Part shown: positions 1 to 64,000 of the stretch, in pieces
How the letters are laid out: the number at the start of each line of letters is the position of its first letter
How positions within the stretch are numbered: position 1 is the stretch's first letter
Source: Eledone cirrhosa
Lineage: Eukaryota
NCBI GenBank assembly: GCA_964016885.1
Contig: OZ024741.1
Location: 12,214,001 to 12,278,000 of the forward strand
DNA: 64,000 nucleotides
Reading direction: 5' to 3'
Notes under the pieces: model-generated
Told to the model about the DNA's origin: nothing
What the model saw: the letters and a program-made list of their open reading frames with translations, nothing else
Database searches by the model: none
Translations under genes and position numbers: made by a program

Positions 1-232
1 GAGATCACAGCTCTGATATTAAGGGTATGTGGTTATAATGTCTCAGGAGATCAGAGGGTCATTCCAGGTAGAGTTGCTACTTCTCCGAATTGAGAGATCA
101 CAGCTCTGATATTAAGGGTATGTGGTTAGAATGTCTCAGGAGATCAGAGAGTCACTCCAGGTAGAGCTGCTACCTCTCCGAATTGAGAGATCACAGCTCT
201 GATATTAAGGGTATGTGGTTAGAATGTCTCAG

Positions 233-325
233 GAGATCAGAGAGTCACTCCAGGTAGAGCTGCTACTTCTCCGAATTGAGAGATCACAGCTCTGATATTA
301 AGGGTATGTGGTTAGAATGTCTCAG
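233..325 (+). mobile_element. Representative monomer (re-phased): degenerate fragment of RTE-clade LINE ORF2, post-RT 'RWxGHxxRM' region; non-functional
   Basis: Manual translation of 233-325 gives [29 protein letters not shown]. This is colinear and ungapped with the RTE/Rex3-type motif [28 protein letters not shown] as I recall it; no search was run. Confidence 0.8.
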
Positions 326-420
326 GAGATCAGAGAGTCATTCCAGGTAGAGCTGCTACTTCTCCGAATTGAGAGATCACAGCTCTGATATTAAGGGTAT
401 GTGGTTAGAATGTCTCAGGA

Positions 421-978
421 GATCAGAGTGTCATTCCAGGTAGAGCTGCTACCTCTCCGAATTGAGAGATCACAGCTCTGATATTAAGGGTATGTGGTTA
501 CAATGTCTCAGGAGATCAGAGAGTCACTCCAGATAGAGCTGCTACCCCTCCGAATTGAGAGATCACAGCTCTGATATTAAGGGTATGTGGTTAGAATGTC
601 TCAGGAGATCAGAGAGTCACTCCAGGTAGAGCTGCTACTTCTCCGAATTGAGAGATCACAGCTCTGATATTAAGGGTATGTGGTTAGAATGTCTCAGGAG
701 ATCAGAGTGTCATTCCAGGTAGAGCTGCTACCTCTCCGAATTGAGAGATCACAGCTCTGATATTAAGGGTATGTGGTTACAATGTCTCAGGAGATCAGAG
801 AGTCACTCCAGATAGAGCTGCTACCCCTCCGAATTGAGAGATCACAGCTCTGATATTAAGGGTATGTGGTTAGAATGTCTCAGGAGATCAGAGAGTCACT
901 CCAGGTAGAGCTGCTACTTCTCCGAATTGAGAGATCACAGCTCTGATATTAAGGGTATGTGGTTAGAATGTCTCAGGA
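421..978 (+). repeat. 3-monomer (279 bp) tandem duplication; boundaries approximate
   Basis: The variant series gagtgtcatt / ggttacaatg / ccagatag...ctacccctc starts at 421 and again at 700. Confidence 0.75.
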
Positions 979-3900
979 GATCAGAGAGTCACTCCAGGTA
1001 GAGCTGCTACTTCTCCGAATTGAGAGATCACAGCTGTGATATTAAGGGTATGTGGTTAGAATGTCTCAGGAGATCAGAGAGTCATTCCAGGTAGAGCTGC
1101 TACTTCTCCGAATTGAGAGATCGCAACTCTGATATTAAGGGTATGAGGTTAGAATGTCTCAGATCAGAGAGTCACTCCAGGTAGAGCGGCTACTACTCCG
1201 ATTTGAGAGATTACAGTTCTGATGTTTAGGGTATGTGGTTAGAATGTCTCAGGAGATCAGAGAATCATTCCAGATAGAGCTGCTACTTCTCCGAATTGAG
1301 AGATCACAGCTCTGATATTAAGGGTATGTGGTTAGAATGTCTCAGGAGATCAGAGAGTCACTCCAGGTAGAGCTGCTACCTCTCCGAATTGAGAGATCAC
1401 AGCTCTGATATTAAGGGTATGTGGTTAGAATGTCTCAGGAGATCAGAGAGTCACTCCAGGTAGAGCTGCTACTTCTCTGAATTGAGAGATCACAGCTCTG
1501 ATATTAAGGGTATGTGGTTAGAATGTCTCAGGAGATCAGAGTGTCATTCCAGGTAGAGCTGCTACCTCTCCGAATTGAGAGATCACAGCTCTGATATTAA
1601 GGGTATGTGGTTACAATGTCTCAGGAGATCAGAGAGTCACTCCAGGTAGAGCTGCTACCCCTCCGAATTGAGAGATCACAGCTCTGATATTAAGGGTATG
1701 TGGTTAAAATGTCTCAGGAGATCAGAGAGTCACTCCAGGTAGAGCTGCTACTTCTCCAAATTGAGAGATCACAGCTCTGATATTAAGGGTATGAGGTTAG
1801 AATGTCTCAGGAGATCAGAGAGTCACTCCAGGTAGAGCTGCTACTTCTCCGAATTGAGAGATCACAGCTCTGATATTAAGGGTATGTGGTTAGAATGTCT
1901 CAGGAGATCAGAGAGTCACTCCAGGTAGAGCTGCTACCTCTCCGAATTGAGAGATCACAGCTCTGATATTAAGGGTATGTGGTTATAATGTCTCAGGAGA
2001 TCAGAGAATCATTCCAGATAGAGCTGCTACTTCTCCGAATTGAGAGATCACAGCTCTGATATTAAGGGTATGAGGTTAGAATGTCTCAGGAGATCAGAGA
2101 GTCACTCCAGGTAGAGCTGCTACTTCTCCGAATTGAGAGATCACAGCTCTGATATTAAGGGTATGTGGTTAGAATGTCTCAGGAGATCAGAGAGTCACTC
2201 CAGGTAGAGCTGCTACTTCTCCGAATTGAGAGATCACAGCTCTGATATTAAGGGTATGTGGTTAGAATGTCTCAGCAGATCAGAGAGTCACTCCAGGTAG
2301 AGCTGCTACCTCTCCGAATTGAGAGATCACAGCTCTGATATTTAGGGTATGTCGTCAGAATGTCTCAGGAGATCAGAGAGTCATTCTAGGTAAAGCTGCT
2401 ACTTCTCCGAATTGAGAGATGACAGCTCTAATATTAGCGGTATGTGGTTAGAATGTCTCAGGGGATCAGAGAGTCATTCCAGGAAGAGCTGCTACTTCTC
2501 CAAATTAAGAGATCACAGTTCTGATATTAAGGGTATGGGGTTAGAATGTCTCAGACGATCAGAGAGTCATTCCAGGTAAAGCTGCTACTTTTCCGAATTG
2601 AGAGACAATAGCTCTGATATTAAGGGTATGTGGTTAGAATGTCTCAGGAGATCAGAGAGTCACTCCAGGTAGAGCTGCTACTTCTCCGAATTGAGAGATC
2701 ACAGCTCTGATATTAAGGTTATGGGGTTAGAATGTCTCAGGAGATCAGAGAGTCACTCCAGGTAGAGCTGCTACTTCTCCGAATTGAGAGATCACAGCTC
2801 TGATATTAACGGTATGTGGTTAGAATGTCTCAGGAGATCAGAGAGTCACTCCAGGTAGAGCTGCTACCTCTCCGTATTGAGAGATCACAGCTCTGATATT
2901 AAGGGTATGTGGTTAGAATGTCTCAGGAGATCAGAGAGTCATTCCAGGTAGAGCTGCTACTTCTCCGAATTGAGAGATCACAGCTCTGATATTGAGGGTA
3001 TGTGGTTAGAATGTCTCAGGAGATCAGAGAGTCATTCCAGGTAGAGCTGCTACTTCTCCGAATTGAGAGATCACAGCTCTGATATTGAGGGTATGTGGTT
3101 AGAATGTCTCAGGAGATCAGAGAGTCATTCCAGGTAAAGCTGCTACTTCTCCCAATTGAGAGATCACAGCTCTGATATTAGGGGTATGTGGTTAGAATGT
3201 CTCAGGAAATCAGAGAGTCACTCCAGGAAGAGCTGCTACTTCTCTGAATTGAGAGATCACAGCTCTGATATTAAGGGTAAGTGGTTAGAAGGTCTCAGAA
3301 GATCAGAGAGTCATTCCAGGTAAAGCTGCTACTTCTCCGAATTGAGAGATCAGAGCTCTGATATTAAGGGTATGTGGTTAGAATGTCTCAGGAGATCAGA
3401 GAGTCACTCCAGGTAGAGCTGCTGCCTCTACAAATTGAGAGATCACAGCTCTGATGTTAAGGGTATGTGGTTAGAATGTCTCAGGAGATCAGAGAGTCAC
3501 TCCAGGTAGAGCGGCTACTACTCCGAATTGAGAGATTACAGTTCTGATATTAAGGGTATGTGGTTAGAATGTCTCAGGAGGTCAGAGAGTCACTCCTGGT
3601 AGAGCTGCTACTTCTCCAAATTGAGAGATCACAGCTCTGATCTTAAGGGTATGTGGTTAGAATGTCTCAGACGATCAGAGAGTCACTCCAGGTAGGGCTG
3701 CTACTTCTCCGAATTTAGAGATCACAGCTCTGATATTAAGGGTATGTGGTTAGAATGTCTCAGGAGATCAGAGAGTCACTCCAGGTAGAGCTGCTACCTC
3801 TCCGAATTGAGAGATCACAGCACTGATATTAAGGGTATGCAGTTAGAATGTCTCAGGAGATCAGAGTGTCATTCCAGGTAAAGCTGCTACTTCTCCGAAT

Positions 3901-6900
3901 TGAGAGATTACAGCTCTAATATTAGGGGTATGTGGTTAGAATGTCTCAGGAAATCAGAGAGTCACTCCAGGTAGAGCTGCTACTGCTCTGAATTGAGAGA
4001 TCACAGCACTGATATTAAGGGTATGTGGTTAGAATGTCTCAGGAGATCAGAAAGTCACTCCAGGTAGAGCTGCTACTTCTCATAATTGAGAGATCACAGC
4101 TCTGATATTAAGGGTATGTGGTTAGAATGTCTCAGAAAATTAGAGAGTCATTCCAGGTAAAGCTGCTACTTCTCCGAATTGAGAGACCATAGCTCTGATA
4201 TTAAGGTTATGTTGTTAGAATGTCTCAGGAGATCAGAGAGTCATTCCAGGTAGAGCTGCTACTTCTCCGAATTGAGAGATCACAGCTCTGATATTAAGGT
4301 TATATGGTTAGAATGTCTAAGGAGATCAGAGTGTCACACCAGGTATAGATGCTACTTCTCCGAATTTAGAGATCACAGCTCTGATATTAAGGGTATGAGG
4401 TTAGAATGTCTCAGGAGATCAGAGAATCACTCCAGGTAGAACTGCTACTTCTCCGAATTGAGAGATCACAGCTCTGATATTAAGATTATGTGGTTATAAT
4501 GTCTCAGGAGATCAGGGACTCATTCCAGGTAGAGTTGCTACTTCTCCGAATTGATAGATCACAGCTCTGATATTAAGGGTATGAGGTTAGAATGTCTCAG
4601 GAGATCAGAGAATCATTCCAGGTAAAGCTGCTACTTCTCCGAATTGAGAGATCACAGCTCTGAGATTAAGGGTATGTGGTTAGAATGTCTCAGGAGATCA
4701 GAGAGTCACTCCAGGTAGAGCTGCTACATCTCCGAATTGAGAGATCACAGCTCTGATATTAAGGGTATGTGGTTAGAATGTCTCAGGAGATCAGAGATTC
4801 ACTCCAGGTAGAGCTGCTACTTCTCCGAATTGAGAGATCACAGCTCTGACATTGAGGGTATGTGGTTAGAATGTCTCAGGAGATCAGAGAGTCATTCCAG
4901 GTAGAGCTACTACTTCTCCGAATTGAGAGATCAGAGCTCTGATATTAAGGGTATGTGGTTAGTATATCTCAGGAGATCAGAAAGTCACTCCAGGTAGAGC
5001 TGCTACTTTTCCGAATTGAGAGATCACAGCTCTGATATTAAGGGTAAGTGGTTAGAAGATCTCAGAAGATCAGAGAGTCATTCCAGGAAAAGCTGCTACT
5101 TCTCCGAATTGAGAGATCAGAGCTCTGATATTAAGGGTATGTGGTTAGAATGTCTCAGGAGATCAGAGAGTCACTCCAGGTAGAGCGGCTACTACTCCGA
5201 ATTGAGAGATTACAGTTCTGATATTAAGGGTATGTGGTTAGAATGTCTCAGGAGATCAGAGAGTCACTCCTGGTAGAGCTGCTACTCCTCCAAATTGAGA
5301 GATCACAGCTCTGATATTAAGGGTATGTGGTTAGAATGTCTCAGGAGATCAGAGAGTCACTCCAGGTAGGGCTGCTATTTCTCCGAATTTAGAGATCACA
5401 GCTCTGATATTAAGGGTATGTGGTTAGAATGTCTCAGGAGATCAGAGAATCACTCCAGGTAGAACTGCTACTTCTCCGAATTGAGAGATCACAGCTCTGA
5501 TATTAAGGGTATGTGGTTAGAATGTCTCAGGAGATCAGAGAGTCACTCCAGGTAGAGCTGCTACTTCTCCAAATTGAGAGATCACAGCTCTGATATTAAA
5601 GGTATGTGGTTAGAATGTCTCAGGAGGTCAGAGTGTCATTCCAGGTAGAGCAGCTACTACACAGAATTGAGAGATCACAGCTCTGATATTAAGGGTATGG
5701 GGTTAGAATGTCTCAGGAGATCAGAGAGTCATTCCAGGTAGAGCTACTACTACTCCGAATTGAGAGATCACAGCTCTGAAATTAAGGGTATGTGGTTAGA
5801 ATGTCTCAGGATATCAGAGAGTCACTCCAGGTAGAGCTGCTACTTCTCCGAATTGAGAGATCACAGCTCTGATATTAAGGGTATGTGGTTAGAATGTCTC
5901 AGGAGAACTGAGAGTCATTCCAGGTAGGGCTGCTGCTTCTCCGAATTGAGAGATTACAGCTCTGATATTAAGGGTATGTGGATAGAATGTCTCAGGAGAT
6001 CAGAGAGTCACTCCAGGTAGAGCTGCTACCTCTCCAAATTGAGAGATCACAGCTCTGATATTAAGGGTATGTGGTTAGAATGTCTCAGGAGATCAGAGAG
6101 TCACTCCGGGTAGAGCTGCTACTTCTCCGAATCGAGAGATCACAGCTCTGATATTAAGGGTATGTGGTTAGAATGTCTCAGGAGATCAGAGAGTCACTCC
6201 AGGTAGAGAGGCTACTACTCCGAATTGAGAGATTACAGTTCTGATATTAAGGGTATGGGGTTAGAATGTCTCAGGAGATCAGAGAGTCACTCCAGGTAGA
6301 GCTGCTACCTCTCCGAATTGAGAGATCACAGCTCTGATATTAAGGGTATGCAGTTAGAACGTCTCAGGAGATCAGAGAGTCATTCCAGGTAAAGCTGCTA
6401 CTTCTCCGAATTGAGAGATTACAGCTCTAATATTAAGGGTATGTGGTTAGAATGCCTCAGGGGATCAGAGAGTCATTCCAGGTAGAGCTGCTACTTCTCC
6501 GAATTGAGAGATCCCAGCTCTGATATTAAGGGTATGAGGTTAGTATATCTCAGGAGATCAGAAAGTCACTCCAGGTAGAGCTGCTACTTCTCATAATTGA
6601 GAGATCACAGCTCTGATATTAAGGGAATGTGGTTAGAATATCTCAGAAGATCAGAGAGTCATTCCAGGTAAAGCTGCTACTTCTCCGAATTGAGAGACCA
6701 TAGCTCTGATATTAAGGTTATGTTGTTAGAATGTCTCAGGAGATCACAGAGTCATTCCAGGGAGAGCTGCTACTTCTCCGAATTGAGAGATCACAGCTCT
6801 GATATTAAGGGTATGTGGTTATAATGTCTCAGGAGATCAGAGACTCATTCCAGGTAGAGTTGCTACTTCTCCGAATTGATAGATCACAGCTCTGATATTA

Positions 6901-9900
6901 AGGGTATGTCGTTAGAATGTCTCAGGAGATCAGAGAGTCATTCCAGGTAAAGCTGCTGCTTCTCCGAATTGAGAGATCACAGCTCTGACATTGAGGGTAT
7001 GTGGTTAGAATGTCTCAGGAGATCAGAGAGTCATTCCAGGTAGAGCTGCTACTTCTCCGAATTGAGAGATCACAGCTCTGATATTAAGGGTATGAGGTTA
7101 GAATGTCTCAGCAGATCAGAGAGTCACTCCAGGTAGAGCGGCTACTACTCCGAATTGAGAGATCACAGCTCTGATATTAAGGGTAAGTGGTTAGAAGGTC
7201 TCAGAAGATCAGAGAGTCATTCCAGGTAAAGCTGCTACTTCTCCGAATTGAGAGATCAGAGCTCTGATATTAAGGGTATGTGGTTAGAATGTCTCAGGAG
7301 ATCAGAGTGTCACTCCAGGTAGAGCTGCTGCCTCTACAAATTGAGAGATCACAGCTCTGATATTAAGGGTATGTGGTTAGAATGTCTCAGGAGATCAGAG
7401 AGTCACTCCAGGTAGAGCGGCTACTACTCCGAATTGAGAGATTACAGTTCTGATATTAAGGGTATGTGGTTAGAATGTCTCAGGAGATCAGAGAGTCACT
7501 CCTGGTAGAGCTGCTACTTCTCCAAATTGAGAGATCACAGCTCTGATATTAAGGGTATGTGGTTAGAATGTCTCAGGAGATCAGAGAGTCACTCCAGGTA
7601 GGGCTGCTATTTCTCCGAATTTAGAGATCACAGCTCTGATATTAAGGGTATGTGGTTAGAATGTCTCAGGAAATCAGAGAGTCACTCCAGGTAGGGCTGC
7701 TATTTCTCCGAATTTAGAGATCACAGCTCTGATATTAAGGGTATGTGGTTAGAATGTCTCAGGAGATCAGAGAGTCACTCCAGGTAGAGCTGCTACTACT
7801 CTGAATTGAGAGATCACAGCTCTGATATTAAGGGTATGTGGTTAGAATGTCTCAGGAGATCAGAGAATCACTCCAGGTAGAACTGCTACTTCTCCGAATT
7901 GAGAGATCACAGCTCTGATATTAATGGTATGTGGTTAGAATGTCTCAGGAGATCAGAGAGTCACTCCAGGTAGAGCTGCTACTTTTCCGAATTGATAGAT
8001 CACAGCTATGATATTAAGGGTATGTGGTTAGAATGTCTCAGGAGATCAGAGAGTCACTCCAGGTAGAGCTGCTACTTCTCCGAATCGAGAGATCACAGCT
8101 CTGATATTAAGGGTATGTGGTTAGAATGTCTCAGGAGATCAGAGAGTCATTCCAGGTAGAGCTGCTACTTCTCCGAATTGAGAGATCACAGCTCTGATAT
8201 TAAGGGTATGAGGTTAGAATGTCTCAGCAGATCAGAGAGTCACTCCAGGTAGAGAGGCTACTACTCCGAATTGAGAGATTACAGTTCTGATATTAAGGGT
8301 ATGTGGTTAGAATGTCTCAGGAGATCAGAGAGTCACTCCAGGTAGAGCTGCTACCTCTCCGAATTGAGAGATCACAGCTCTGATATTAAGGGTATGCAGT
8401 TAGAACGTCTCAGGAAATCAGAGAGTCATTCCAGGTAAAGCTGCTACTTCTCCGAATTGAGAGATCACAGCTATGATATTATGGGTATGTGGTTAGAATG
8501 TCTCAGGAAATCAGAGAGTCACTCCAGGTAGAGCTGCTACTGCTCTGAATTGAGAGATCACAGCACTGATATTAAGGGTATGTGGTTAGAATGTCTCAGG
8601 AGATCAGAGAGTCACTCCAGGTAGAGCTGCTACTTCTCCGAATTGAGAGATCACAGCTCTGATATTAAGGGTATGTGGTTAGAATGCCTCAGGGGATCAG
8701 ACAGTCATTCCAGGTAGAGCTGCTACTTCTCCGAATTGAGAGATCCCAGCTCTGATATTAAGGGTATGAGGTTAGTATATCTCAGGAGATCAGAAAGTCA
8801 CTCCAGGTAGAGCTGCTACTTCTCATAATTGAGAGATCACAGCTCTGATATTAAGGGAATGTGGTTAGAATATCTCAGAAGATCAGAGAGTCATTCCAGG
8901 TAAAGCTGCTACTTCTCCGAATTGAGAGACCATAGCTCTGATATTAAGGTTATGTTGTTAGAATGTCTCAGGAGATCATAGAGTCATTCCAGGGAGAGCT
9001 GCTACTTCTCCGAATTGAGAGATCACAGCTCTGATATTAAGGTTATATGGTTAGAATGTCTAAGGAGATCAGAGTGTCACACCAGGTAGAGATGCTACTT
9101 CTCCGAATTTAGAGATCACAGCTCTGATATTAAAGGTATGTGGTTATAATGTCTCAGGAGATCAGAGAATCACTCCAGGTAGAACTGCTACTTCTCCGAA
9201 TTGAGAGATCACAGCTCTGATATTAAGGGTATGTGGTTATAATGTCTCAGGAGATCAGAGACTCATTCCAGGTAGAGTTGCTACTTCTCCGAATTGATAG
9301 ATCACAGCTCTGATATTAAGGGTATGTCGTTAGAATGTCTCAGGAGTTCAGAGAGTCATTCCAGGTAAAGCTGCTGCTTCTCCGAATTGAGAGATCACAG
9401 CTCTGAAATTGAGGGTATGTGGTTAGAATGTCTCAGGAGATCAGAGAGTCACTCCAGGTAGAGCTGCTACTTCTCCGAATTGAGAAATCACAGCTCTGAT
9501 ATTAAGAGTATGAGGTTAGAATGTCTCAGCAGATCAGAGAGTCACTCCAGGTAGAGCGGCTACTACTCCGATTTGAAAGATTACAGTTCTGATATTTAGG
9601 GTATGTGGTTAGAATGTCTCAGGAGATCAGAGAATCATTCCAGATAGAGCTGCTACTTCTCCGAATTGAGAGATCACAGCTCTGATATTAAGGGTATGTG
9701 GTTAGAATATCTCAGGAGATCAGAGAGTCACTCCAGGTAGAGCTGCTACTTCTCCGAATTGAGAGATCCCAGCTCTGATATTAAGGGTATGTGGTTAGTA
9801 TATCTCAGGAGATCAGAAAGTGACTCCAGGTAGAGCTGCTACTTTTCCGAATTGAGAGATCACAGCTCTGATATTAAGGGTAAGTGGTTAGAAGGTCTCA

Positions 9901-12040
9901 GAAGATCAGAGAGTCATTCCAGGTAAAGCTGCTACTTCTCCGAATTGAGAGATCAGAGCTCTGATATTAAGGGTATGTGGTTAGAATGTCTCAGGAGATC
10001 AGAGTGTCACTCCAGGTAGAGCTGCTGCCTCTACAAATTGAGAGATCACAGCTCTGATATTAAGGGTATGTGGTTAGAATGTCTCAGGAGATCAGAGAGT
10101 CACTCCAGGTAGAGCGGCTACTACTCTGAATTGAGAGATTACAGTTCTGATATTAAGGGTATGTGGTTAGAATGTCTCAGGAGATCAGAGAGTCACTCCT
10201 GGTAGAGCTGCTACTTCTCCAAATTGAGAGATCACAGCTCTGATATTAAGGGTATGTGGTTAGAATGTCTCAGGAGATCAGAGAGTCACTCCAGGTAGAG
10301 CTGCTACCTCTCCGAATTGAGAGATCACAGCTCTGATATTAAGGGTATGCAGTTAGAATGTCTCAGGAGATCAGAGAGTCATTCCAGGTAAAGCTGCTAC
10401 TTCTCCGAATTGAGAGATTACTGCTCTAATATTAGGGGTATGTGGTTAGAATGTCTCAGGAAATCAGAGTGTCACTCAAGGTAGAGCTGCTACTGCTCTG
10501 AATTTAGAGATCACAGCTCTGATATTAAGGGTATGTGGTTAGAATGTCTCAGGAGATCAGAGAATCACTCCAGGTAGAACTGCTACTTCTCCGAATTGAG
10601 AGATCACAGCTCTGATATTAAGGGTATGTGGTTATAATGTCTCAGGAGATCAGAGACTCATTCCAGGTAGAGTTGCTACTTCTCCGAATTGATAGATCAC
10701 AGCTCTGATATTAAGGGTATGTCGTTAGAATGTCTCAGGAGATCAGAGAGTCATTCCAGGTAAAGCTGCTACTTCTCCGATTTGAGAGATCACAGCTCTG
10801 ATATTAAGGGTATGTGGTTAGAATGTCTCAGGAGATCAGAGAGTCACTCCAGGTAAAGCTGCTACCTCTCCGAATTGAGAGATCACAGCTCTGATATTAA
10901 GGGTATATGGTTAGAATGTCTCAGGAGATCAGAGAGTCACTCCAGGTAGAGCTGCTACTTCTCCAAATTGAGAGATCACAGCTCTGATATTAAGGGTATG
11001 TGGTTAGAATGTCTCAGGAGGTCAGAGTGTCATTCCAGGTAGAGCAGATACTACACAGAATTGAGAGATCACAGTTCTGATATTAAGGGTATGGGGTTAG
11101 AATGTCTCAGGAGATCAGAGAGTCATTCCAGGTAGAGCTACTACTACTCCGAATTGAGAGATCACAGCTCTGATATTAAGGGTATGTGGTTAGAATGTCT
11201 CAGGATATCAGAGAGTCACTCCAGGTAGAGCTGCTACTCCTCCGAATTGAGAGATCACAGCTCTGATATTAAGGGTATGTGGTTAGAATGTCTCAGGAGA
11301 ACTGAGAGTCATTCCAGGTAGGGCTGCTACTTCTCCGAATTGAGAGATTACAGCTCTGATATTAAGGGTATGTGGATAGAATGTCTCAGGAGATCAGAGA
11401 GTCACTCCAGGTAGAACTGCTACTTCTCCGAATTGAGAGATCACAGATCTGATATTAAGGGTCTGGGGTTAGAATGTCTCAGGAGATCAGAGAGTCATTC
11501 CAGGTAGAGCTACTACTACTCCGAATTGAGAGATCACAGCTCTGATATTAAGGGTATGTGGTTAGAATGTCTCAGGATATCAGAGAGTCACTCCAGGTAG
11601 AGCTGCTACTCCTCCGAATTGAGAGATCACAGCTCTGATATTAAGGGTATGGGGTTAGAATGTCTCAGGAGATCAGAGAGTCATTCCAGGTAGAGCTACT
11701 TCTACTCCGAATTGAGAGATCACAGCTCTGATATTAAGGGTATGTGGTTAGAATGTCTCAGGATATCAGAGAGTCACTCCAGGTAGAGCTGCTACTCCTC
11801 CGAATTGAGAGATCACAGCTCTGATATTAAGGGTATGTGGTTAGAATGTCTCAGGAGAACTGAGAGTCATTCCAGGTAGGGCTGCTACTTCTCCGAATTG
11901 AGAGATTACAGCTCTGATATTAAGGGTATGTGGATAGAATGTCTCAGGAGATCAGAGAGTCACTCCAGGTAGAACTGCTACTTCTCCGAATTGAGAGATC
12001 ACAGATCTGATATTAAGGGTATGTGGTTAGAATGTCTCAG

Positions 12041-12133
12041 GAGATCAGAGAGTCACTCCAGGTAGAGCCGCTACTTCTCCGAATTGAGAGATCACAGCTC
12101 TGATATTAAGGGTATGTGGTTAGAATGTCTCAG
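12041..12133 (+). pseudogene. Monomer carrying the putative ancestral Pro codon ([13 protein letters not shown])
   Basis: CCG at 12068-12070 gives [29 protein letters not shown], a closer match to the RTE ORF2 motif; both stop codons are still present. Confidence 0.7.
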
Positions 12134-13199
12134 GAGATCAGAGAGTCACTCCGGGTAGAGCTGCTACCTCTCCGAATTGAGAGATCACAGCTCTGATATT
12201 AAGGGTATGCAGTTAGAACGTCTCAGGAGATCAGAGAGTCATTCCAGGTAAAGCTGCTACTTCTCCGAATTGAGAGATTACAGCTCTAATATTAGGGGTA
12301 TGTGGTTAGAATGTCTCAGGAAATCAGAGAGTCACTCCAGGTAGAGCTTCTACTTCTCTGAATTGAGAGATCACAGCACTGATATTAAGGGTATGTGGTT
12401 AGAATGACTCAGGAGATCAGAGAGTCACTCCAGGTAGAGCTGCTACTTCTCCGAATTGAGAGATCACAGCTCTGATATTAAGGGTATGTGGTTAGAATGC
12501 CTCAGGGGATCAGAGAGTCATTCCAGGTAGAGCTGCTACTTCTCCGAATTGAGAGATCCCAGCTCTGATATTAAGGGTATGAGGTTAGTATATCTCAGGA
12601 GATCAGAAAGTCACTCCAGGTAGAGCTGCTACTTCTCATAATTGAGAGATCACAGCTCTGATATTAAGGGTATGTTGTTAGAATGACTCAGGAGATCAGA
12701 GAGTCATTCCAGGTAGAGCTGCTACTTCTCCGAATTGAGAGATCACAGCTCTGATATTAAGGTTATATGGTTAGAATGTCTAAGGAGATCAGAGTGTCAC
12801 ACCAGGTAGAGATGCTACTTCTCCGAATTTAGAGATCACAGCTCTGATATTAAGGGTATGTGGTTAGAATGTCTCAGGAGATCAGAGAATCACTCCAGGT
12901 AGAGCTTCTACTTCTCCGAATTGAGAGATCACAGCTCTGATATTAAGGGTATGTGGTTATAATGTCTCAGGAGATCAGAGACTCATTCCAGGTAGAGTTG
13001 CTACTTCTCCGAATTGATAGATCACAGCTCTGATATTAAGGGTATGTCGTTAGAATGTCTCAGGAGATCAGAGAGTCACTCCAGGTAAAGCTGCTGCTTC
13101 TCCGAATTGAGAGATCACAGCTCTGATATTAAGGGTATGTGGTTAGAATGTCTCAGGAGATCAGAGAGTCACTCCAGGTAGAGCTGCTACCTCTCCGAA

Positions 13200-51900: not shown

Positions 51901-54900
51901 ATATTAAGGGTATGTGGTTAGAATGTCTCAGAAGATCAGAGAGTCATTCCAGGTAAAGCTGCTACTTCTCCGAATTGAGAGACCATAGTTCTGATATTAA
52001 GGGTATGTGGTTAGAATGTCTCAGGAGATCAGAGAGTCACTCCAGGTAGAGCTGCTACTTCTCCGAATTGAAAGATCACAGCTCTGATATTAAGGGTATG
52101 TGGTTACAATGTCTCAGGAGATCAGAGAGTCATTCCCGGTAGAACTGCAACTACTCCGAATTGAGAGATCACAGCTCTGATATTAAGGGTATGTGGTTAG
52201 AATGTCTCAGAAGATCAGAGAGTCACTCCAGGTAAAGCTGCTACTTCTCCGAATTGAGATATCACATCTCTGATATTAAGGGTATGTGGTTAGAATGTCT
52301 CAGGAGATCAGAGAGCCACTCCAGGTAGAGCTGCTACCTCTCCGAATTGAGAGATCACAGATTTGATATTAGGGGTATGTGGGTAGAATGTCTCAGGAGA
52401 TCGGAGAGTCAGTCCAGGTAGAGCTGCTACTTCTCCGAATTGAGAGATCACAGCTCTGATATTAAGGTTATGGGGTTAGAATGTCTAAGGAGATCAGAGA
52501 GTCACTCCAGGTAGAGATGCTACTTCTCCGAATTTAGAGATCACAGCTCTGATATTAAGGGTATGTGATTAGAATGTCTCAGGAGATCAGAGAGTCACTC
52601 CAGGTAGAACTGCTACTTCTCAGAATTGAGAGATCACAGCTCTGATATTAAGGGTATGTGGTTAGAATGTCTCAGGAGATCAGAGAGTCACTCCAGGTAG
52701 AGCTGCTACTTCTCCGAATTGAGAGATCACAGCTCTGATATTAAGGGTATGTGGTTAGAACGTCTCAGGAGATCTGAGAGTCATTCCAGGTAGGGCTGCT
52801 ACTTCTCCGAATTGAGAGATTACAGCTCTGATATTAAGGGTATGTGGTTAGAATGTCTCAGGAGATCAGAGAATCACAACAGGTAGAGCTGCTACTCCTC
52901 TGAATTGAGATATCACATCTCTGATATTAAGGGTATGTGGTTAGAATGTCTCAGGAGATCAGAGAGTCACTCCAGGTAGAGCTGCTACTTCTCCGAATTG
53001 AGAGATCACAGCTCTGATATTAAGGGTATGTGGTTAGAATGTCTCAGGAGATCAGAGAGTCATTCCAGGTAGAGCTGCTACTTCTCCGACTTGAGAGATC
53101 ACAGCTCTGATATTAAGGGTATGTGGTTACAATGTCTCAGGAGATCAGAGAGTCACTCCAGGTAGAGCGGCTACTACTCCGATTTGAGAGATTACAGTTC
53201 TGATATTTAGGGAATGTGGTTAGAATGTCTCAGGAGATCAGAGAATCATTCCAGATAGAGCTGCTACTTCTCCGAATTGAGAGATCACAGCTCTGATATT
53301 AAGGATATGGGGTTAGCATGTCTCAGGAGATCAGGGAGTCATTCCAGGTAAAGCTGCTACTTCTCCGAATTGAGAGATTACAGCTCTGATATTAGGGGTA
53401 TGTGATTAGATTGTCTCAGAAAATCAGAGAGTCACTCTAGGTCGAGCTGCTACATCTCTGAATTGAGAGATCACAGCTCTGATATTAAGGGTATGTGGTT
53501 AGAATGTCTCAGGAGATCAGAGAGTCACTCCAGGTAGAGCTGCTACTTCTCCGAATTGAGAGATCACAGCTCTGATATTAAGGCTATGTGGTTAGAATGT
53601 CTCAGGAGATCAGATAATCATTCCAGGTAGCGCTGCTACTTCTCCGAATTGAGAGATCACAGCTCTGATATTAAGGGTATGAGGTTAGAATATCTCAGGA
53701 GATCAGAAAGTCTCTCCAGGTAGAGCTGCTACTTCTCCGAATTGAGAGATTACAGCTCTGATATTAAGTGTATGTGGTTAGAATGTCTCAGGAGATCAGT
53801 GAATCACTCCAGGTAGAGCTGCTACTTCTCCGAATTGAGAGATCACAGCTCTGATATTAAGGGTATGTGGTTAGAATGTCTCAGGAGATCAGAGAGTCAC
53901 TCCAAGTAGAGCTGCTACTTCTCCGAATTGAGAGATCCCAGCTCTGATATTAAGCGTATGAGGTTAGAAAATCTCAGGAGATCAGAAAGTCACTCCAGGT
54001 AGAGCTGCTACTTCTCCGAATTGAGAGATCACAGCTCTGATATTAAGGGTATGTGGTTAGAACGTCTCAGGAGATCTGAGAGTCATTCCCGGTAGAACTG
54101 CAACTACTCCGAATTGAGAGATCACAGCTCTGATATTAAGGGTATGTGGTTAGAATGTCTCAGAAGATCAGAGAGTCATTCCAGGTAAAGCTGCTACTTC
54201 TCCGAATTGAGAGAGCATAGTTCTGATATTAGGGGTATGTGGTTAGAATGTCTCAGGAGATCAGAGAGTCATTCCAGGTAGAGCTGCTACTTCTCCGAAT
54301 TGAAAGATCACAGCTCTGATATTAAGGTTATGGGGTTAGAATGTCTCAGGAGATCAGAGAGTCACAACAGGTAGAGCTGCTACTCCTCCGATTTGAGAGA
54401 TCACATCTCTGATATTAAGGGTATGTGGTTAGAATGTCTCAGGAGATCAGAGAGTCACTCCAGATAGAGCTGCTACTACTCCGATTTGAGAGATTACAGC
54501 TCTGATATTAAGGGTATGTGCTTAGAATGTCTCAGGGGATCAGAGAGTCATTCCAGGTAGAGCGGCTACTACTCCGATTTGAGAGATTACAGCTCTGATA
54601 TTAAGGGTATGTGCTTAGAATGTCTCAGGAGATCAGAGAGTCACTCCAGGTAGAGCGGCTACTACTCCGATTTGAGAGATTACAGCTCTGATATTAAGGG
54701 TATGTGCTTAGAATGTCTCAGGGGATCAGAGAGTCATTCCAGGTAGAGCTGCTACTTCTCCGAATTGAGAGATCACAGCTCTGATATTAAGGGTATGTGG
54801 TTAGAATGTCTCAGGAGATCAGAGAGCCACTCCAGGTAGAGCTGCTACCTCTCCGAATTGAGAGATCACAGCTCTGATATTAAGGGTATGTGGGTAGAAT

Positions 54901-57900
54901 GTCTCAGGAGATCGGAGAGTCACTCCAGGTAGAGCTGCTACTTCTCCGAATTGAGAGATCACAGCTCTGATATTAAGGTTATGGGGTTAGAATGTCTAAG
55001 GAGATCAGAGAGTCACTCCAGGTAGAGATGCTACTTCTCCGAATTTAGAGATCACAGCTCTGATATTAAGGGTATGTGGTTAGAACGTCTCAGGAGATCT
55101 GAGAGTCATTCCAGGTAGGGCTGCTACTTCTCCGAATTGAGAGATTACAGCTCTGATATTAAGGGTATGGGGTTAGAGTGTCTCAGGAGATCAGAGAATC
55201 ACAACAGGTAGAGCTGCTACTCCTCCGATTTGAGATATCACATCTCTGATATTAAGGGTATGTGGTTAGAATGTCTCGGGAGATCAGAGAGTCACTCCAG
55301 GTAGAGCTGCTACTTCTCCGAATTGAGAGATCACAGCTCTGATATTAAGGGTATGGGGTTAGAATGTCTCAGGAGATCAGAGAGTCATTCCAGTTAGAGC
55401 TGCTACTTCTCCGACTTGAGAGATCACAGCTCTGATATTAAGGGTATGTGGTTACAATGTCTCAGGAGATCAGAGAGTCACTCCAGGTAGAGCTGCTACT
55501 TCTCCGAATTGAGAGATCACAGCTCTGATATTAAGGATATGGGATTAGCATGTCTCAGGAGATCAGAGAGTCATTCCAGGTAAAGCTGCTACTTCTCCGA
55601 ATTGAGAGATTACAGCTCTGATATTAGGGGTATGTGGTTAGAATGTCTCAGAAAATCAGAGAGTCACTCTAGGTCGAGCTGCTACTTCTCTGAATTGAGA
55701 GATCACAGCTCTGATATTAAGGGTATGTGGTTAGAATGTCTCAGGAGATCAGAGAGTCACTCCAGGTAGAGCTGCTACTTCTCCGAATTGAGAGATCACA
55801 GCTCTGATATTAAGGCTATGTGGTTAGAATGTCTCAGGAGATCAGAGAATCATTCCAGGTAGCGCTGCTACTTCTCCGAATTGAGAGATCACAGCTCTGA
55901 TATTAAGGGTATGAGGCTAGAATATCTCAGGAGATCAGAAAGTCTCTCCAGGTAGAGCTGCTACTTCTCAGAATTGAGAGATTACAGCTCTGATATTAAG
56001 GGTATGAGGTTAGAATATCTCAGAAGATCAGAGAGTCAGTCCAAGTAAAGCTGCTACTTCTCCGAATTGAGAGACCACAGCTCTGATATTAAGGGTATGT
56101 GGTTAGAATGTCTCAGGAGATCAGAGAGTCACTCCAGGTAGAGCTGCTACTTCTCCTAATTGAGAGATCACAGCTCTGATATTAAGGGTATGTGGTTAGA
56201 ATGTCTCAGGAGATCTGAGAGTCATTCCAGGTAGGGCTGCTACTTCTCCGAATTGAGAGACCATAGTTCTCATGTTAAGGGTATGTGGTTAGAATGTCTC
56301 AGGAGATCAGAGAGTCATTCCAGGTAGGGCTGCTACTTCTCCGAATTGAGAGACCATAGTTCTCATGTTAAGGGTATGTGGTTAGAATGTCTCAGGAGAT
56401 CAGAGAGTCATTCCAGGTAGAGCTGCTACTTCTCCGAATTGAGAGATCACAGCTCTGATATTAAGGTTATGGGGTTAGAATGTCTAAGGAGATCAGAGAG
56501 TCACTCCAGGTAGAGCTGATACTTCTCCGAATTGAGAGATTACAGCTCTGATATTAAGGGTATGTGCTTAGAATGTCTCAGGAGATCAGAGAGTCATTCC
56601 AGGTAGAGCTGCTACTTCTCTGAATTGAGAGATCACAGCTCTGATATTAAGGGTATGTGGTTAGAATGTCTCAGGAGATCAGAGAATCACAACAGGTAGA
56701 GCTCCTACTCCTCCGAATTGAGATATCACATCTCTGATATTAAGGGTATGTGGTTAGAATGTCTCAGGAGATCAGAGAGTCATTCCAGGTAGAGCTGCTA
56801 CTTCTCTGAATTGAGAGATCACAGCTCTGATATTAAGGGTATGTGGTTAGAATGTCTCAGGAGATCAGAGTGTCATTCCAGGTAAAGCTGCTACTTCTCC
56901 AAATTGAGAGATTACAGCTCTGATATTAGGGGTATGGCGTTAGAATGTCTCAGGAGATCAGAGAGTCACTCCAGGTAGAGCTGCTACTTCTCTGAATTGA
57001 GAGATCACAGCTCTGATATTAAGGGTATGTTGTTAGAATGACTCAGAATATCAGAGAGTCACTCCAGGTAGAGATGCTACTTCTCCGAATTGAGAGATCA
57101 CAGAGCAGATATTAGGGGTATGTGGTTAGAATGTCTCAGGAAAACAGAGAATCACTCCAGGTAGAGCTGCTACTTCTCTAAATTGAGAGATCACAGCTCT
57201 CATATTAAGGGTATGTGGTTAGAATGTCTCAGGAGATCAGAGAGTCACTCCAGGTAGAGCTGCTACTTCTCCAAATTGAGAGATCACAGCTCTGATATTA
57301 AGGGTATGTGGTTAGAATGTCTCAGGAGATCATAGAGTCACTCCAGGTAGAGCTGCTACTTCTCCGAATTGAGAGATCACAGCTCTGATATTAAGGGTAT
57401 GTGGTTAGAATGTCTCAGGAGTTCAGAGAGTCACCCCAGGTAGGGCTGCTACTTCTCCGAATTGAGAGATTACAGCTCTGATATTAAGGGTATGTGGTTA
57501 GAATGTGTCAGGAGATCAGAGAATCACAACAGGTAGAGCTCCTACTCCTCCGAATTGAGATATCACATCTCTGATATTAAGGGTATGTGGTTAGAATGTC
57601 TCAGGAGATCAGAGAGTCATTCCAGGTAGAGCTGCTACTTCTCTGAATTGAGAGATCACAGCTCTGATATTAAGGGTATGTGGTTAGAATGTCTCAGGAG
57701 ATCAGAGTGTCATTCCAGGTAAAGCTGCTACTTCTCCGAATTGAGAGATTACAGCTCTGATATTAGGGGTATGTGGTTAGAATGTCTCAGGAAATCAGAG
57801 AGTCACTCCAGGTAGAGCTGCTACTTCTCTGAATTGAGAGATCACAGCTCTGATATTAAGGGTATGTTGTTAGAATGACTCAGAATATCAGAGAGTCACT

Positions 57901-60900
57901 CCAGGTAGAGATGCTACTTCTCCGAATTGAGAGATCACAGAGCAGATATTAGGGGTATGTGGTTAGAATGTCTCAGGAAAACAGAGAGTCACTCCAGGTA
58001 GAGCTGCTACTTCTCTGAATTGAGAGATCACAGCTCTCATATTAAGGGTATGTGGTTAGAATGTCTCAGGAGATCAGAGAGTCACTCCAGGTAGAGCTGC
58101 TACTTATGCAAATTGAGAGATCACAGCTCTGATATTAAGGGTATGTGGTTAGAATGTCTCAGGAGATCATAGAGTCACTCCAGGTAGAGCTGCTACTTCT
58201 CCGAATTGAGAGATCACAGCTCTGATATTAAGGGTATGTGGTTAGAATGTCTCAGGAGATCTGAGAGTCATTCCAGGTAGAGTGGCTACTACTCCGAATT
58301 GAGAGATCACAGCTCTGATATTAAGGTTATGGGGTTAGAATGTCTAAGGACATCAGAGAATCACAACAGGTAGAGCTGCTACTCCTCCGAATTGAGATAT
58401 CACATCTCTGATATTAAGGGTATGTGGTTAGAATGTCTCAGGAGATCAGAGAGTCATTCCAGGTAAAGCTGCTACTTCTCCGAATTGAGAGACCATAGTT
58501 CTGATATTAAGGGTATGTGGTTAAAATGTCTCAGGAGATCAGAGAGTCATTCCAGGTAGAGCTGCTACTTCTCCGAATTGAGAGATCACAGCTCTGATAT
58601 TAAGGTTATGGGGTTAGAATGTCTAAGGAGATCAGAGAGTCACTCCAGGTAGAGATGCTACTTCTCCGAATTTAGAGATCACAGCTCTGATATTAAGGGT
58701 ATGTGATTAGAATGTCTCAGGAGATCAGAGAGTCACTCCAGGTAGAACTGCTACTTCTCCGAATTTAGAGATTACAGCTCTGATATTAAGGGTATGTGGT
58801 TAGAATGTCTCAGGAGATCAGAGAATCACAACAGGTAGAGCTGCTATTCCTCCGAACTGAGATATCACATCTCTGATATTAAGGGTATGTGGTTAGAATG
58901 TCTCAGGAGATCAGAGAGTCTCTCCAGGTAGAGCGGCTAGTACTCCGATTTGAGAGATTACAGCTCTGATATTAAGGGTATGTGCTTAGAATGTCTCAGG
59001 GGATCAGAGAGTCATTCCAGATAGAGCTGCTACCTCTCCGAATTGAGAGATCACAGCTCTGATATTAAGGGTATGTGGGTAGAATGTCTCAGGAGATCGG
59101 AGAATCACTCCAGGTAGAGCTGCTACTTCTCCGAATTGAGAGATCACAGCTCTGATATTAAGGGTATGTGGTTAGAATGTCTCAGGAGATCAGAGAGTCA
59201 TTCCAGGTAGAGCTGCTACTTCTCCGAATTGAGAGATCACAGCTCTGATATTAAGGGTATTTGGTTAGAATGTCTCAGGAGATCAGAGAGTCACTCCAGG
59301 TAGAGCGGCTACTACGCCGATTTGAGAGATCACAGCTCTGATATTAAGGGTATGTGGTTAGAATGTCTCAGAAGATCAGATAGTCAGTCCAGGTAAAGCT
59401 GCTACTTCTCCGAATTGAGAGATCACAGCTCTGATATTAAGGGTATGTGGTTAGAATGTCTCAGGAGATCACAGAGTCACTCCAGGTAGAGATGCTACTT
59501 CTCCGAATTGAGAGATCACAGCTCGGATATTAGGGGTATGTGGTTAGAATGTCTATGGAAATCAGAGAGTCACTCCAGGAAACGCTGCTACTTCTCTGAA
59601 TTGAGAGATCACAGCTCTGATATTAAGGGTATGTGGTTAGAATGTCTCAGGAGATCAGAGTGTCATTCAAGGTAAAGCTGCTACTTCTCCGAATTGAGAG
59701 ATTACAGCTCTGATATTAGGGGTATGTGGTTAGAATGTCTCAGGAAATCAGAGAGTCACTCCAGGTAGAGCTGCTACTTCTCTGAATTGAGAGATCACAG
59801 CTCTGATATTAAGGGTATGTTGTTAGAATGACTCAGAATATCAGAGAGTCACTCCAGGTAGAGATGCTACTTCTCCGAATTGAGAGATCACAGCTCTGAT
59901 ATTAAGGGTATGTGGTTAGAATGTCTCAGGAGATCAGAGTCATTCCAGGTAGAGCTGCTACTTCTCCGAAATGAGAGATCACAGCTCTAATATTAAGGGT
60001 ATGAGGTTAGAATGTCTCAGGAGTTCAGAGAGTCACTCCAGGTAGAGCTGCTACTTCTCCGAATTGAGAGATCACAGCTCTAATATTAGGGGTATGTGGT
60101 TAGAATGTCTCAGGAAATCAGAGAGTCACTCCAGGTAACGCTGCTACTTCTCTGAATTGAGAGATCACAGCTCTGATATTAATGGTATGTGGTTAGAATG
60201 TCTCAGGAGATCAGAGAGTCACTCCAGGTAGAGCTGCTACTTCTCTGAATTGAGAGATCACAGCTCTGATATTAAGGGTATGTTGTTAGAATGACTCAGA
60301 ATATCAGAGAGTCACTCCAGGTAGAGATGCTACTTCTCCGAATTGAGAGATCACAGCGCAGATATTAGGGGTATGTGGTTAGAATGTCTCAGGAAAACAG
60401 AGAGTCACTCCAGGTAAAGCTGCTACTTCTCTGAATTGAGAGATCACAGCTCTGATATTAAGGGTATGTGGTTAGAATGTCTCAGGAGATCAGAGAGTCA
60501 CACCAGGTAGAGCTGCTACTTCTCCAAATTGAGAGATCACAGCTCTGATATTAAGGTTATGGGGTTAGAATGTCTAAGGAGATCAGAGAATCACAACAGG
60601 TAGAGCTGCTACTCCTCCGAATTGAGATATCACATCTCTGATATTAAGAGTATGTGGTTAGAATGTCTCAGGAGATCAGAGAGTCATTCCAGGTAAAGCT
60701 GCTACTTCTCCGAATTGAGAGACCATAGTTCTGATATTAAGGGTATGTGGTTAGAATGTCTCAGGAGATCAGAGTGTCATTCCAGGTAAAGCTGCTACTT
60801 CTCCGAATTGAGAGATTACAGCTCTGATATTAGGGGTATGTGGTTAGAATGTCTCAGGAAATCAGAGAGTCACTCCAGGTAGAGCTGCTACTTCTCTGAA

Positions 60901-63900
60901 TTGAGAGATCACAGCTCTGATATTAAGGGTATGTTGTTAGAATGACTCAGAATATCAGAGAGTCACTCCAGGTAGAGATGCTACTTCTCCGAATTGAGAG
61001 ATCACAGAGCAGATATTAGGGGTATGTGGTTAGAATGTCTCAGGAAAACAGAGAGTCACTCCAGGTAGAGCTGCTACTTCTCTGAATTGAGAGATCACAG
61101 CTCTCATATTAAGGGTATGTGGTTAGAATGTCTCAGGAGATCAGAGAGTCACTCCAGGTAGAGCTGCTACTTCTCCAAATTGAGAGATCACAGCTCTGAT
61201 ATTAAGGGTATGTGGTTAGAATGTCTCAGGAGATCTGAGAGTCATTCCAGGTAGAGTGGCTACTACTCCGAATTGAGAGATCACAGCTCTGATATTAAGG
61301 TTATGGGGTTAGAATGTCTAAGGAGATCAGAGAATCACAACAGGTAGAGCTGCTACTCCTCCGAATTGAGATATCACATCTCTGATATTAAGCGTATGTG
61401 GTTAGAATGTCTCAGGAGATCAGAGAGTCATTCCAGGTAAAGCTGCTACTTCTCCGAATTGAGAGACCATAGTTCTGATATTAAGGGTATGTGGTTAGAA
61501 TGTCTCAGGAGATCAGAGAGTCACTGCAGGTAGAACTGCAACTTCTCCGAATTGAGAGATCACAGCTCTGATATTAAGGGTATGGGGTTAGAATGTCTCA
61601 GGAGATCAGAGAGTCACTCCAGGTAGAGCTGATACTTCTCCGAATTGAGAGATTACAGCTCTGATATTAAGGGTATGTGGTTAGAATGTCTCAGGAGATC
61701 AGAGAGTCATTCCAGGTAGAGCTGCTACTTCTCTGAATTGAGAGATCACAGCTCTGATATTAAGGGTATGTGGTTAGAATGTCTCAGGAGATCAGAGAGT
61801 CATTCCAGGTAAAGCTGCTACTTCTACGAATTGAGAGATTACAGCTCTGATATTAAGGGTATGTGGTTAGAATGTCTCAGGAAATCAGAGAGTCACTCCA
61901 GGTAGAGCTGCTACTTCTCTGAATTGAGAGATCACAGCTCTGATATTAAGGGTATGTTGTTAGAATGACTCAGAATATCAGAGAGTCACTCCAGGTAGAG
62001 CTGCTACTTCTCTGAATTGAGAGATCACAGCTCTGATATTAATGGTATGTGGTTAGAATGTCTCAGGAGATCAGAGTGTCATTCCAGGTAAAGCTGCTAC
62101 TTCTCCGAATTGAGAGATTACAGCTCTGATATTAGGGGTATGTGGTTAGAATGTCTCAGGAAATCAGAGAGTCACTCCAGGTAGAGCTGCTACTTCTCTG
62201 AATTGAGAGATCACAGCTCTGATATTAAGGGTATGTTGTTAGAATGACTCAGAATATCAGAGAGTCACTCCAGGTAGAGATGCTACTTCTCCGAATTGAC
62301 AGATCACAGCTCTGATATTAAGGGTATGTGGTTAGAATGTCTCAGGAGATCAGAGTCATTCCAGGTAGAGCTGCTACTTCTCCGAATTGAGAGATCACAG
62401 CTCTGATATTAAGGGTATGAGGTTAGAATGTCTCAGGAGTTCAGAGAGTCACTCCAGGTAGAGATGCTACTTCTCCGAATTGAGAGATCACAGCTCTCAT
62501 ATTAGGGGTATGTGGTTAGAATGTCTCAGGAAATCAGAGAGTCACTCCAGGTAACGCTGCTACTTCTCTGAATTGAGAGATCACAGCTCTGATATTAATG
62601 GTATGTGGTTAGAATGTCTCAGGAAATCAGAGAGTCACTCCATGTAACGCTGCTACTTCTCCGAATTGAGAGATCACAGCGCAGATATTAGGGGTATGTG
62701 GTTAGAATGTCTCAGAAAAACAGAGAGTCACTCCAGGTAGAGCTGCTACTTCTCTGAATTGAGAGATCACAGCTCTGATATTAAGGGTATGTGGTTAGAA
62801 TGTCTCAGGAGATCAGAGAGTCACTCCAGGTAGAGCTGCTACTTCTCCGAATTGAGAGATCACAGCTCTGATATTAAGGGTATGTGGTTAGAATGTCTCA
62901 GGAGATCTGAGAGTCATTCCAGGTAGAGTGGCTACTACTCCGAATTGAGAGATCACAGCTCTGATATTAAGGTTATGGGGTTAGAATGTCTAAGGAGATC
63001 AGAGAATCACAACAGGTAGAGCTGCTACTCCTCCGAATTGAGATATCACATCTCTGATATTAAGGGTATGTGGTTAGAATGTCTCAGGAGATCAGAGAGT
63101 CATTCCAGGTAAAGCTGCTACTTCTCCGAATTGAGAGACCATAGTTCTGATATTAAGGGTATGTGGTTAGAATGTCTCAGGAGATCAGAGAGTCATTCCA
63201 GGTAGAGCTGCTACTTCTCCGAATTGAGAGATCACAGCTCTGATATTAAGGTTATGGGGTTAGAATGTCTAAGGAGATCAGAGAGTCACTCCAGGTAGAG
63301 ATGCTACTTCTCCGAATTTAGAGATCACAGCTCTGATATTAAGGGTATGTGGTTAGAACGTCTCAGGAGATCTGAGGGTCATTCCAGGTAGGGCTGCTAC
63401 TCCTCCGAACTGAGATATCACATCTCTGATATTAAGGGTATGTGGTTAGAATGTCTCAGGAGATCAGAGAGTCACTCCAGGTAGAGCGGCTAGTACTCCG
63501 ATTTGAGAGATTACAGCTCTGATATTAAGGGTATGTGCTTAGAATGTCTCAGGGGATCAGAGAGTCATTCCATGTAGAGCTGCTACCTCTCCGAATTGAG
63601 AGATCACAGCTCTGATATTAAGGGTATGTGGGTAGAATGTCTCAGGAGATCGGAGAATCACTCCAGGTAGAGCTGCTACTTCTCCGAATTGAGAGATCAC
63701 AGCTCTGATATTAAGAGTATGTGGTTAGAATGTCTCAAGAGATCAGAGAGTCATTCCAGGTAGAGCTGCTACTTCTCCGAATTGAGAGATCACAGCTCTG
63801 ATATTAAGGGTATTTGGTTAGAATGTCTCAGGAGATGAGAGGGTCACTCCAGGTAGAGCGGCTACTACTCCGATTTGAGAGATCACAGTTCTGATATTAA

Positions 63901-64000
63901 GGGTATGTGGTTAGAATGTCTCAGAAGATCAGATAGTCAGTCCAGGTAAAGCTGCTACTTCTCCGAATTTAGAGATCACAGCTCTGATATTAAGGGTATG
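49000..64000 (+). repeat. Distinct variant sub-domain of the array
   Basis: Variants cacaacagg...gagatatcacatctc (first at ~49711), gactcagaatatc (first at ~57040), cagagcagat and ggtaacgctg are seen only here. The gtgtcacacc marker typical of 4-49 kb is last seen at ~48593. Confidence 0.8.

Follow-up and report, generated by a model that had tools for sequence, protein, structure and literature searches.

The locus analysed here raises the question of how a short piece of LINE coding sequence becomes a satellite. The window, by which we mean the whole stretch of 64,000 bp of DNA that was analysed, corresponds to G000:C2:12,214,001-12,278,000 of a 3.0-Gb assembly. TRF reported a single array over its full length, with a period of 93, 688.3 copies and 92% matches. 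When the array was cut into monomers, 676 of the 687 had a length of exactly 93 bp, with a mean deviation of 4.3% from the majority, and no higher-order period was found at lags 1-119 across the window. The initial annotation had described a satellite of at least 64 kb. The whole array was found to cover G000:C2:12,186,202-12,356,483, that is 170,282 bp or ~1,831 units of 93 bp on a single strand, and the array pieces fetched beyond the window contained no gap of more than 30 bases. The features on which the following argument is based are these:

1..64000, + strand: head-to-tail 93-bp array, 688 copies, the middle-left part of the 170,282-bp array
233..325, + strand: a single 31-codon unit in the LINE register with the majority sequence of the array, reading [29 protein letters not shown] and stemming from the ORF's C-terminal domain
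293..301, + strand: the two fixed stops of the C2 array, TGA (from CGA, a CpG change) and TAA (from TAT)
324..328, + strand: unit-to-unit junction; the breakpoints in the parent LINE share the 3-base microhomology GGA
L064:2064-2201, outside the window: upstream LINE flank, ~137 bp, continuing the array in register
L072:8484-8535, outside the window: downstream LINE flank, 52 bp, continuing the array in register

It had been proposed from the letters alone that the monomer is a fossil 31-codon piece of the ORF of an RTE-clade LINE. This is shown by the sequences at the two array ends, both of which pass in register into the upstream and downstream parts of one truncated LINE copy. These flanks differ from the family majority at 16/137 and 5/52 bases, ordinary copies being 10.9% off, and beyond both flanks the LINE gives way to simple repeats. 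Likewise, dispersed matches to the unit, for which a search had been suggested, lie inside 5'-truncated elements that end in (GAA)n. The + frame starting at position 2 does repeat the reported peptide, with variants in the first unit. Using a profile built from 114 non-self homologous C-terminal segments of other organisms' proteins, the real frame scored 36.8 bits and the other five frames -0.9 to -2.2. None of 14,000 shuffled peptides, a comparison on which the proposal had staked itself, exceeded 8.7 bits; the best score was 7.7 among 12,000 nucleotide-shuffle frames and 8.7 among 2,000 codon shuffles. In relatives the unit lies ~65-75 residues before the C-terminus. Pfam returned no family for the X-read dimer or for the 100-aa C-terminal frame, and a PDB search with the C-terminal piece returned nothing. 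That the satellite derives from a LINE is practically certain, and as an event it is of a known kind.

The unit of the C2 array differs from the family majority at 5 of 93 bases, two of which are CpG; codon 10 was ancestrally Pro. TGA is present at codon 21 in 655 of 676 units and TAA at codon 23 in 619. With respect to the ancestral sequence, the predicted peptide LRYYGH proved correct and the codons assumed for it did not, since they read CGA TAC TAT GGG CAT, the TAA being derived from TAT and the TAT of codon 22 from TAC. The ancestral 34-base motif has 1,235 exact matches in the genome and the reversed control none. While these 1,235 carry neither the TAA nor the TAT, 189 and 30 carry one of them, and 5-8 outside the array carry both, where 4.6 would be expected if the changes were independent. 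A templated or subfamily origin of the two changes was rejected on account of this agreement; with haplotype counts as expected from independent changes, no special cause has to be assumed for the two stops. A coding role of the C2 array was also rejected, given that every one of the 676 units has a stop in the LINE frame and that open frames do not exceed 61 codons. Nothing points to a job for this array, and it is most likely functionless. No RNA sample was listed as carrying its sequence, which argues neither for nor against expression.

The peptide had furthermore been described as typical of Rex3-type RTE proteins, and named Rex3 proteins do carry the motif: ERSQL is found three times in the RTE/Rex3 protein file of PMC2887409, including GaRex3-a01 (stickleback Rex3). 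The majority of 66 single copies in the genome shows an open frame, a stop codon, 6 bases and then (GAA)n, and the copies are 10.9% off this majority. Near full-length copies with APE and RT are present. The 877-aa relative P0011 contains an AP endonuclease and a reverse transcriptase in one long ORF (Exo_endo_phos_2, E=2e-8; RVT_1, E=6.5e-37); it clusters at 90% with P0003, whose identity to the C-terminus of a local copy is 73%. The match of genome copies to P0011 reaches 65% over 750 aa, with stops in every long copy, and a 1,047-aa homologue is matched in pieces from residue 7 to 1,047. The nearest named matches to the parent are RT proteins from teleosts and rotifers (50-55%), and in the PDB the long relative matched only the RTs of L1, R2 and group II introns. 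No CCHC pattern was found in the last 200 aa of P0011, P0013 and P0015. The Rex3/RTE subgroup of the RTE clade is not known to have a C-terminal CCHC knuckle.

RTE elements have been described as carrying APE and RT in one ORF, followed by a very short simple-repeat 3' UTR (PMC2887409), and for Rex3 proper a tail of two GAA followed by GATG repeats has been described (PMC6274825). The tails found here consist of GAA runs only, with no GATG repeats, so that the parent is Rex3-like and not Rex3 proper. Judged by domains, tail and motif rather than by a tree, the parent probably belongs to the RTE clade; it has the single APE+RT ORF, the short simple-repeat 3' UTR, the 5' truncation, the target-site duplications and the Rex3 C-terminal motif. 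It shares with the Rex3/RTE subgroup the one-frame APE and RT, the very short GAA 3' UTR, the frequent 3' partial copies and the motif of GaRex3-a01; for RTE elements the tails are reported to seed microsatellites, whereas 93-bp arrays from the ORF are not described in what these two sources report (PMC2887409, PMC6274825). Three side observations concern the family. The LINE copies at L033, L038 and L043 on C1 have in common both the context of their 5' start and the sequence that follows the tail, and are therefore parts of a larger duplicated or mobile unit. Three matches to the upstream control motif, one of them inverted, lie within 10 kb at G000:C3:220,696,470-220,706,887, likely a local segmental duplication. 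The protein P0010, labelled as coming from a Herbaspirillum metagenome-assembled genome, clusters at 90% with this animal-type LINE protein, which is likely to reflect contamination of that assembly.

We found that the breakpoint of the C2 array is shared by many LINE copies. The identical 93-bp junction is present in at least 23 separate copies on 9 contigs; these have individual 5' ends (-366 to +40 relative to the unit) and contain 2 to ~1,831 units. The number 23 is a lower bound, one listing having covered 100 of 299 matches, and it says nothing on rate because it was the junction itself that served to find the loci. The junction motif has 1,664 matches, of which the fetched C2 pieces account for 1,111, a second array for 376 and the portion fetched of a third for 14, the remaining 163 lying elsewhere. 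The 93-bp junction is also spanned by contigs under other labels and is thus not an assembly artefact. This sharing of one breakpoint is new, and arrays of this kind in large number had not been foreseen in the initial annotation.

Further junction types were identified: 99 bp at five loci (C1, C5, C6 twice, C11), 111 bp at two (C9, C18), 123-124 bp at three (C10, C19, C23) and 65 bp, out of frame, on three contigs (C1, C10, C23). Back-jumps of 65, 99 and ~115-123 bases are present in raw reads of two other samples; contigs that bear a second organism label also contain those of 65 and ~115-123 bases. At C10:6.81 Mb, two arrays of the 65-bp type (L079:1086-2188 with 17 units, L156:279-935 with 8) face each other with their 5' ends on opposite strands, ~590 bp apart. 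At C20:10,286,000-10,288,500 (L080), a LINE copy retains both flanks around ~40 in-register units of 48 or 51 bp, among which a 3-base insertion toggles. In a hotspot control the counts among the listed loci were 7/115 for the unit segment versus 0/131 overall, and 7/43 versus 0/22 on C6 and above (p=0.085). Back-jumps were seen in 3 of 40 independently anchored fetched loci, one of them outside the unit segment, and none in the best-covered 200 bases downstream. Resting on the listed loci and these 40, the control gives no more than modest support to the unit segment as a duplication hotspot and is thin as evidence for re-priming.

Two other arrays have reached the size of satellites. The second, at G000:C28:32,197,700-32,277,800 (L180-L188), comprises ~80 kb and ~860 units and lies in a LINE copy of its own, whose 3' end is complete; it shows an open majority frame and an internal divergence of 8.0%. 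Its natural frames extend to 397 codons or 12 units (L185:5071-6261), which a gene caller could annotate as repeat proteins. The third reaches from G000:C28:12,853,515 to beyond 12,880,000 (L248, L249, L253), that is more than 26 kb. It contains mixed units of 93 and 89 bp and begins at the second base of the unit, without an upstream LINE flank.

How such arrays grow can be seen inside the C2 array. Blocks of up to 65 near-identical units recur there at long distance, and an identical twin exists for 1,273 of 1,719 units, the pattern that unequal exchange would leave. A higher-order repeat was rejected, as only local block duplications of up to 65 units were present. The C2 haplotype is confined to the one array, with 578 of 586 exact matches falling in the fetched C2 pieces; this bears on a centromeric role, for which large arrays on most chromosomes and binding of CENP-A would be expected. 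Growth and homogenisation of a seed by unequal exchange are established satellite biology. The surroundings of the array on C2 (10.2-14.3 Mb; L014-L030, L063, L074) are rich in other tandem and simple repeats.

The origin of the seed itself is a separate matter, and the shortest loci are the most informative. The two units of a dimer, compared in 11 cases, show 12.7 differences per 100 sites, against 16.2 for unrelated copies; being nearly as diverged as unrelated copies, they point to a duplication nearly as old as the insertion. The same dimers have 11 shared derived non-CpG changes in 863 sites (1.27 per 100 versus 0.46 in unrelated copies), and at L003, L149 and L252 two to three derived changes are common to both units. 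An origin of L003 by recombination with the C2 monomer was not favoured, its two units sharing two private bases absent from the C2 majority. In longer arrays the first and the last unit often share more changes, the mark of later homogenisation. As the C2 array is homogenised, its own seed is undatable.

A second line of evidence comes from the 5' ends. Of 23 junction loci, 17 have a 5' start inside the unit or at most 50 bases from it, and among single copies 27 of 95 do (rank test p=0.0012). This comparison leaves out nine duplicated loci and any copies whose start lies beyond +45. Restricted to C6 and above, the figures are 14/19 and 7/19 (Fisher p=0.049, rank test p=0.058), so that the signal weakens once chromosomes are matched. 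Among loci running past the unit, 7/13 junction loci stop within 50 bases versus 7/58 single copies, with chromosomes unmatched. Target-site duplications of at least 9 matching bases were found at 5/21 tandem loci versus 7/420 mismatched pairs, and where such a duplication surrounds a tandem locus the short 5' end is original. Together, the divergence of the dimers and the early upstream stops (p ~0.05 after chromosome matching) suggest that the seed likely formed at insertion.

The 170-kb satellite grew in place from 93 coding bases of one dead RTE-clade LINE copy; tentatively, we favour the view that its first duplication arose during insertion by re-priming of the reverse transcriptase. The enzyme would copy from the 3' tail, stall near unit positions -14 to +36 and re-prime ~65-125 bases back on the RNA, at +86 to +115, using 0-3 bases of microhomology. 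Reverse transcription may often end soon after re-priming, and the outcome would be a dimer or short multimer inside one target-site duplication. Through unequal exchange, a few of these seeds would later expand and become homogeneous, and changes private to one array, the two stops among them, would become fixed. This account is preferred because it covers the age of the seeds, the early stops and the mixed junctions. Several junction types occur within one locus at L120, L157, L159 and L247, as repeated jumps would give. In the RNA, the unit is predicted to be an unstructured stretch with a stable fold on each side (z -3.3 and -4.6). A hairpin pairing the ends of the unit was rejected, z being ~0 for RNA and DNA. 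The LINE majority has a strong predicted RNA fold in its coding region, ~290 to 130 bases upstream of the unit, with z down to -5.7, and another downstream of the unit (z -4.6).

For non-LTR elements, template jumping, in which the cDNA continues at a second template position and a concatemer results, offers a parallel. It has been reported to yield concatemers for L1 ORF2p in vitro (PMC10830420), and it is part of models for R2 and L1 (PMC2912911, PMC2718515). In these accounts jumping is shown for template ends or target DNA, whereas the recurrent internal back-jumps on RTE RNA would be a step that we infer here. It is possible, if still doubtful, that the reverse transcriptase of the RTE element stutters at one fixed stretch of its own RNA, repeatedly seeding tandem copies of 65-125 bases, of which at least three became satellites of 26-170 kb; the enzyme would then set the limits of the monomer.

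A less probable though credible alternative is that the seed arose in place at the DNA level, when young copies underwent polymerase slippage or repair at the GGA microhomology and/or when gene conversion carried junctions into near-identical neighbours, with unequal exchange following. Unequal homologous recombination among many copies has been proposed for the squamate sSats (PMC10702118). The distribution of the loci fits this alternative and is not predicted by a stutter at insertion: seven junction loci cluster at C19:22.6-26.2 Mb of 40.2 Mb and five at C6:90.6-99.6 Mb (the cluster covering 90-99.6 of 102.6 Mb), and 4/23 are on C1-C5. With respect to a subtelomeric preference like that of the sSats, the positions are mixed: the C2 array (12.2 of 416 Mb), the C6 cluster and the C8 locus (58.9 of 60.6 Mb) would fit it, whereas the C19 cluster and the C28 arrays (12.9 and 32.2 of 136 Mb) would not readily do so. 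The repeat-rich surroundings and the small excess of shared derived changes in the dimers, which fits later duplication or conversion, also speak for a DNA-level seed and the latter against re-priming. However, no array-diagnostic bases are shared among the junction loci beyond CpG changes and one common family polymorphism, and this includes neighbouring C19 arrays; lacking donor-recipient bases there, any copying must be very old. Moreover, the microhomologies of 0-3 bases are not the best repeats in the region, and neither the mixing of junctions within a locus nor the link to short 5' ends would be predicted.

It is unlikely that the junctions were inherited from one or a few active source elements with in-frame duplications of 31, 33, 37 or 41 codons in the C-terminal domain, the arrays having then grown locally: the reading frame is kept in 9/13 junction types (p=0.009 versus 1/3, 0.045 versus a microhomology-based 0.42), which fits translated source elements better than re-priming, L157 and L159 have the same pair of junctions, identically ordered, the frame of L245 stays open across the dimer and on to the 3' end and the duplication is close in age to the insertion, but the 3' flanks of the junction loci give no subfamily signal (0.68 shared changes per 100 versus 0.73 in single copies), the out-of-frame 65-bp junction recurs on three contigs, the early stops of loci running past the unit distinguish junction loci from single copies (chromosomes unmatched), and none of 120 long homologues of other organisms has the segment twice in one protein. 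Among 150 listed representatives the segment was duplicated in two, neither of them a clean 31-residue dimer.

The array can be compared with systems described before. Satellites from parts of mobile elements, including pieces of LINE ORF2, are well known (PMC9659126, PMC12628747). Among those related to LINE ORF2 are chicken HinfI/SCR1 (CR1), Phodopus PROsat and seal Pvc 20 (L1) and the cetacean common satellite (L1 3' end); as here, they are tandem repeats with LINE ORF2 or 3' sequence (PMC9659126). In the examples given there the monomer includes the LINE piece or resembles it, whereas in the present case the whole monomer is 31 codons, the parent is attached at both ends and the breakpoint is recurrent. 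The terms 'RTE' and 'Rex' are absent from the text of that review.

The closest likeness is to the squamate satellites sSat1-3 (Vassetzky, Kosushkin and Ryskov 2023), with a unit of 67 nt and up to ~950 units for snake sSat3 and more than 1,200 units at one lizard locus (PMC10702118). As in the main features reported for the sSats, the unit is internal to a retroposon, the terminal units run into the parent, and many loci, from short to long, have the same unit limits. Unlike what is reported there, the parent is the coding region of an autonomous LINE and not a SINE, both flanks are usually kept, and the arrays each have private bases rather than forming one homogenised family. With a parent that is not a SINE, the array is sSat-like but no sSat. 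The sSat paper proposes unequal recombination, and the string 'reverse transcript' is absent from its article text (PMC10702118). Among the papers listed in searches of the open literature, none dealt with a satellite from RTE coding sequence or with recurrent seeds made by a reverse transcriptase.

How a satellite gains its first tandem duplication can usually no longer be traced. Here, at least 23 insertions have the same breakpoint across the whole range of sizes, each with parent flanks, so that the age of the seed, its growth and its homogenisation can be measured separately. Our data thus add a graded series of independent arrays with one breakpoint, and evidence that the seeds likely date from insertion. 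If the seed arose at the DNA level, the arrays would be a clean new example of a known process. If it was made by the LINE enzyme at insertion, retrotransposition would be a direct, site-specific source of satellite monomers. And if the enzyme does stutter as proposed, the path from dimer to satellite may be read at loci that still have the ends of their parent attached.
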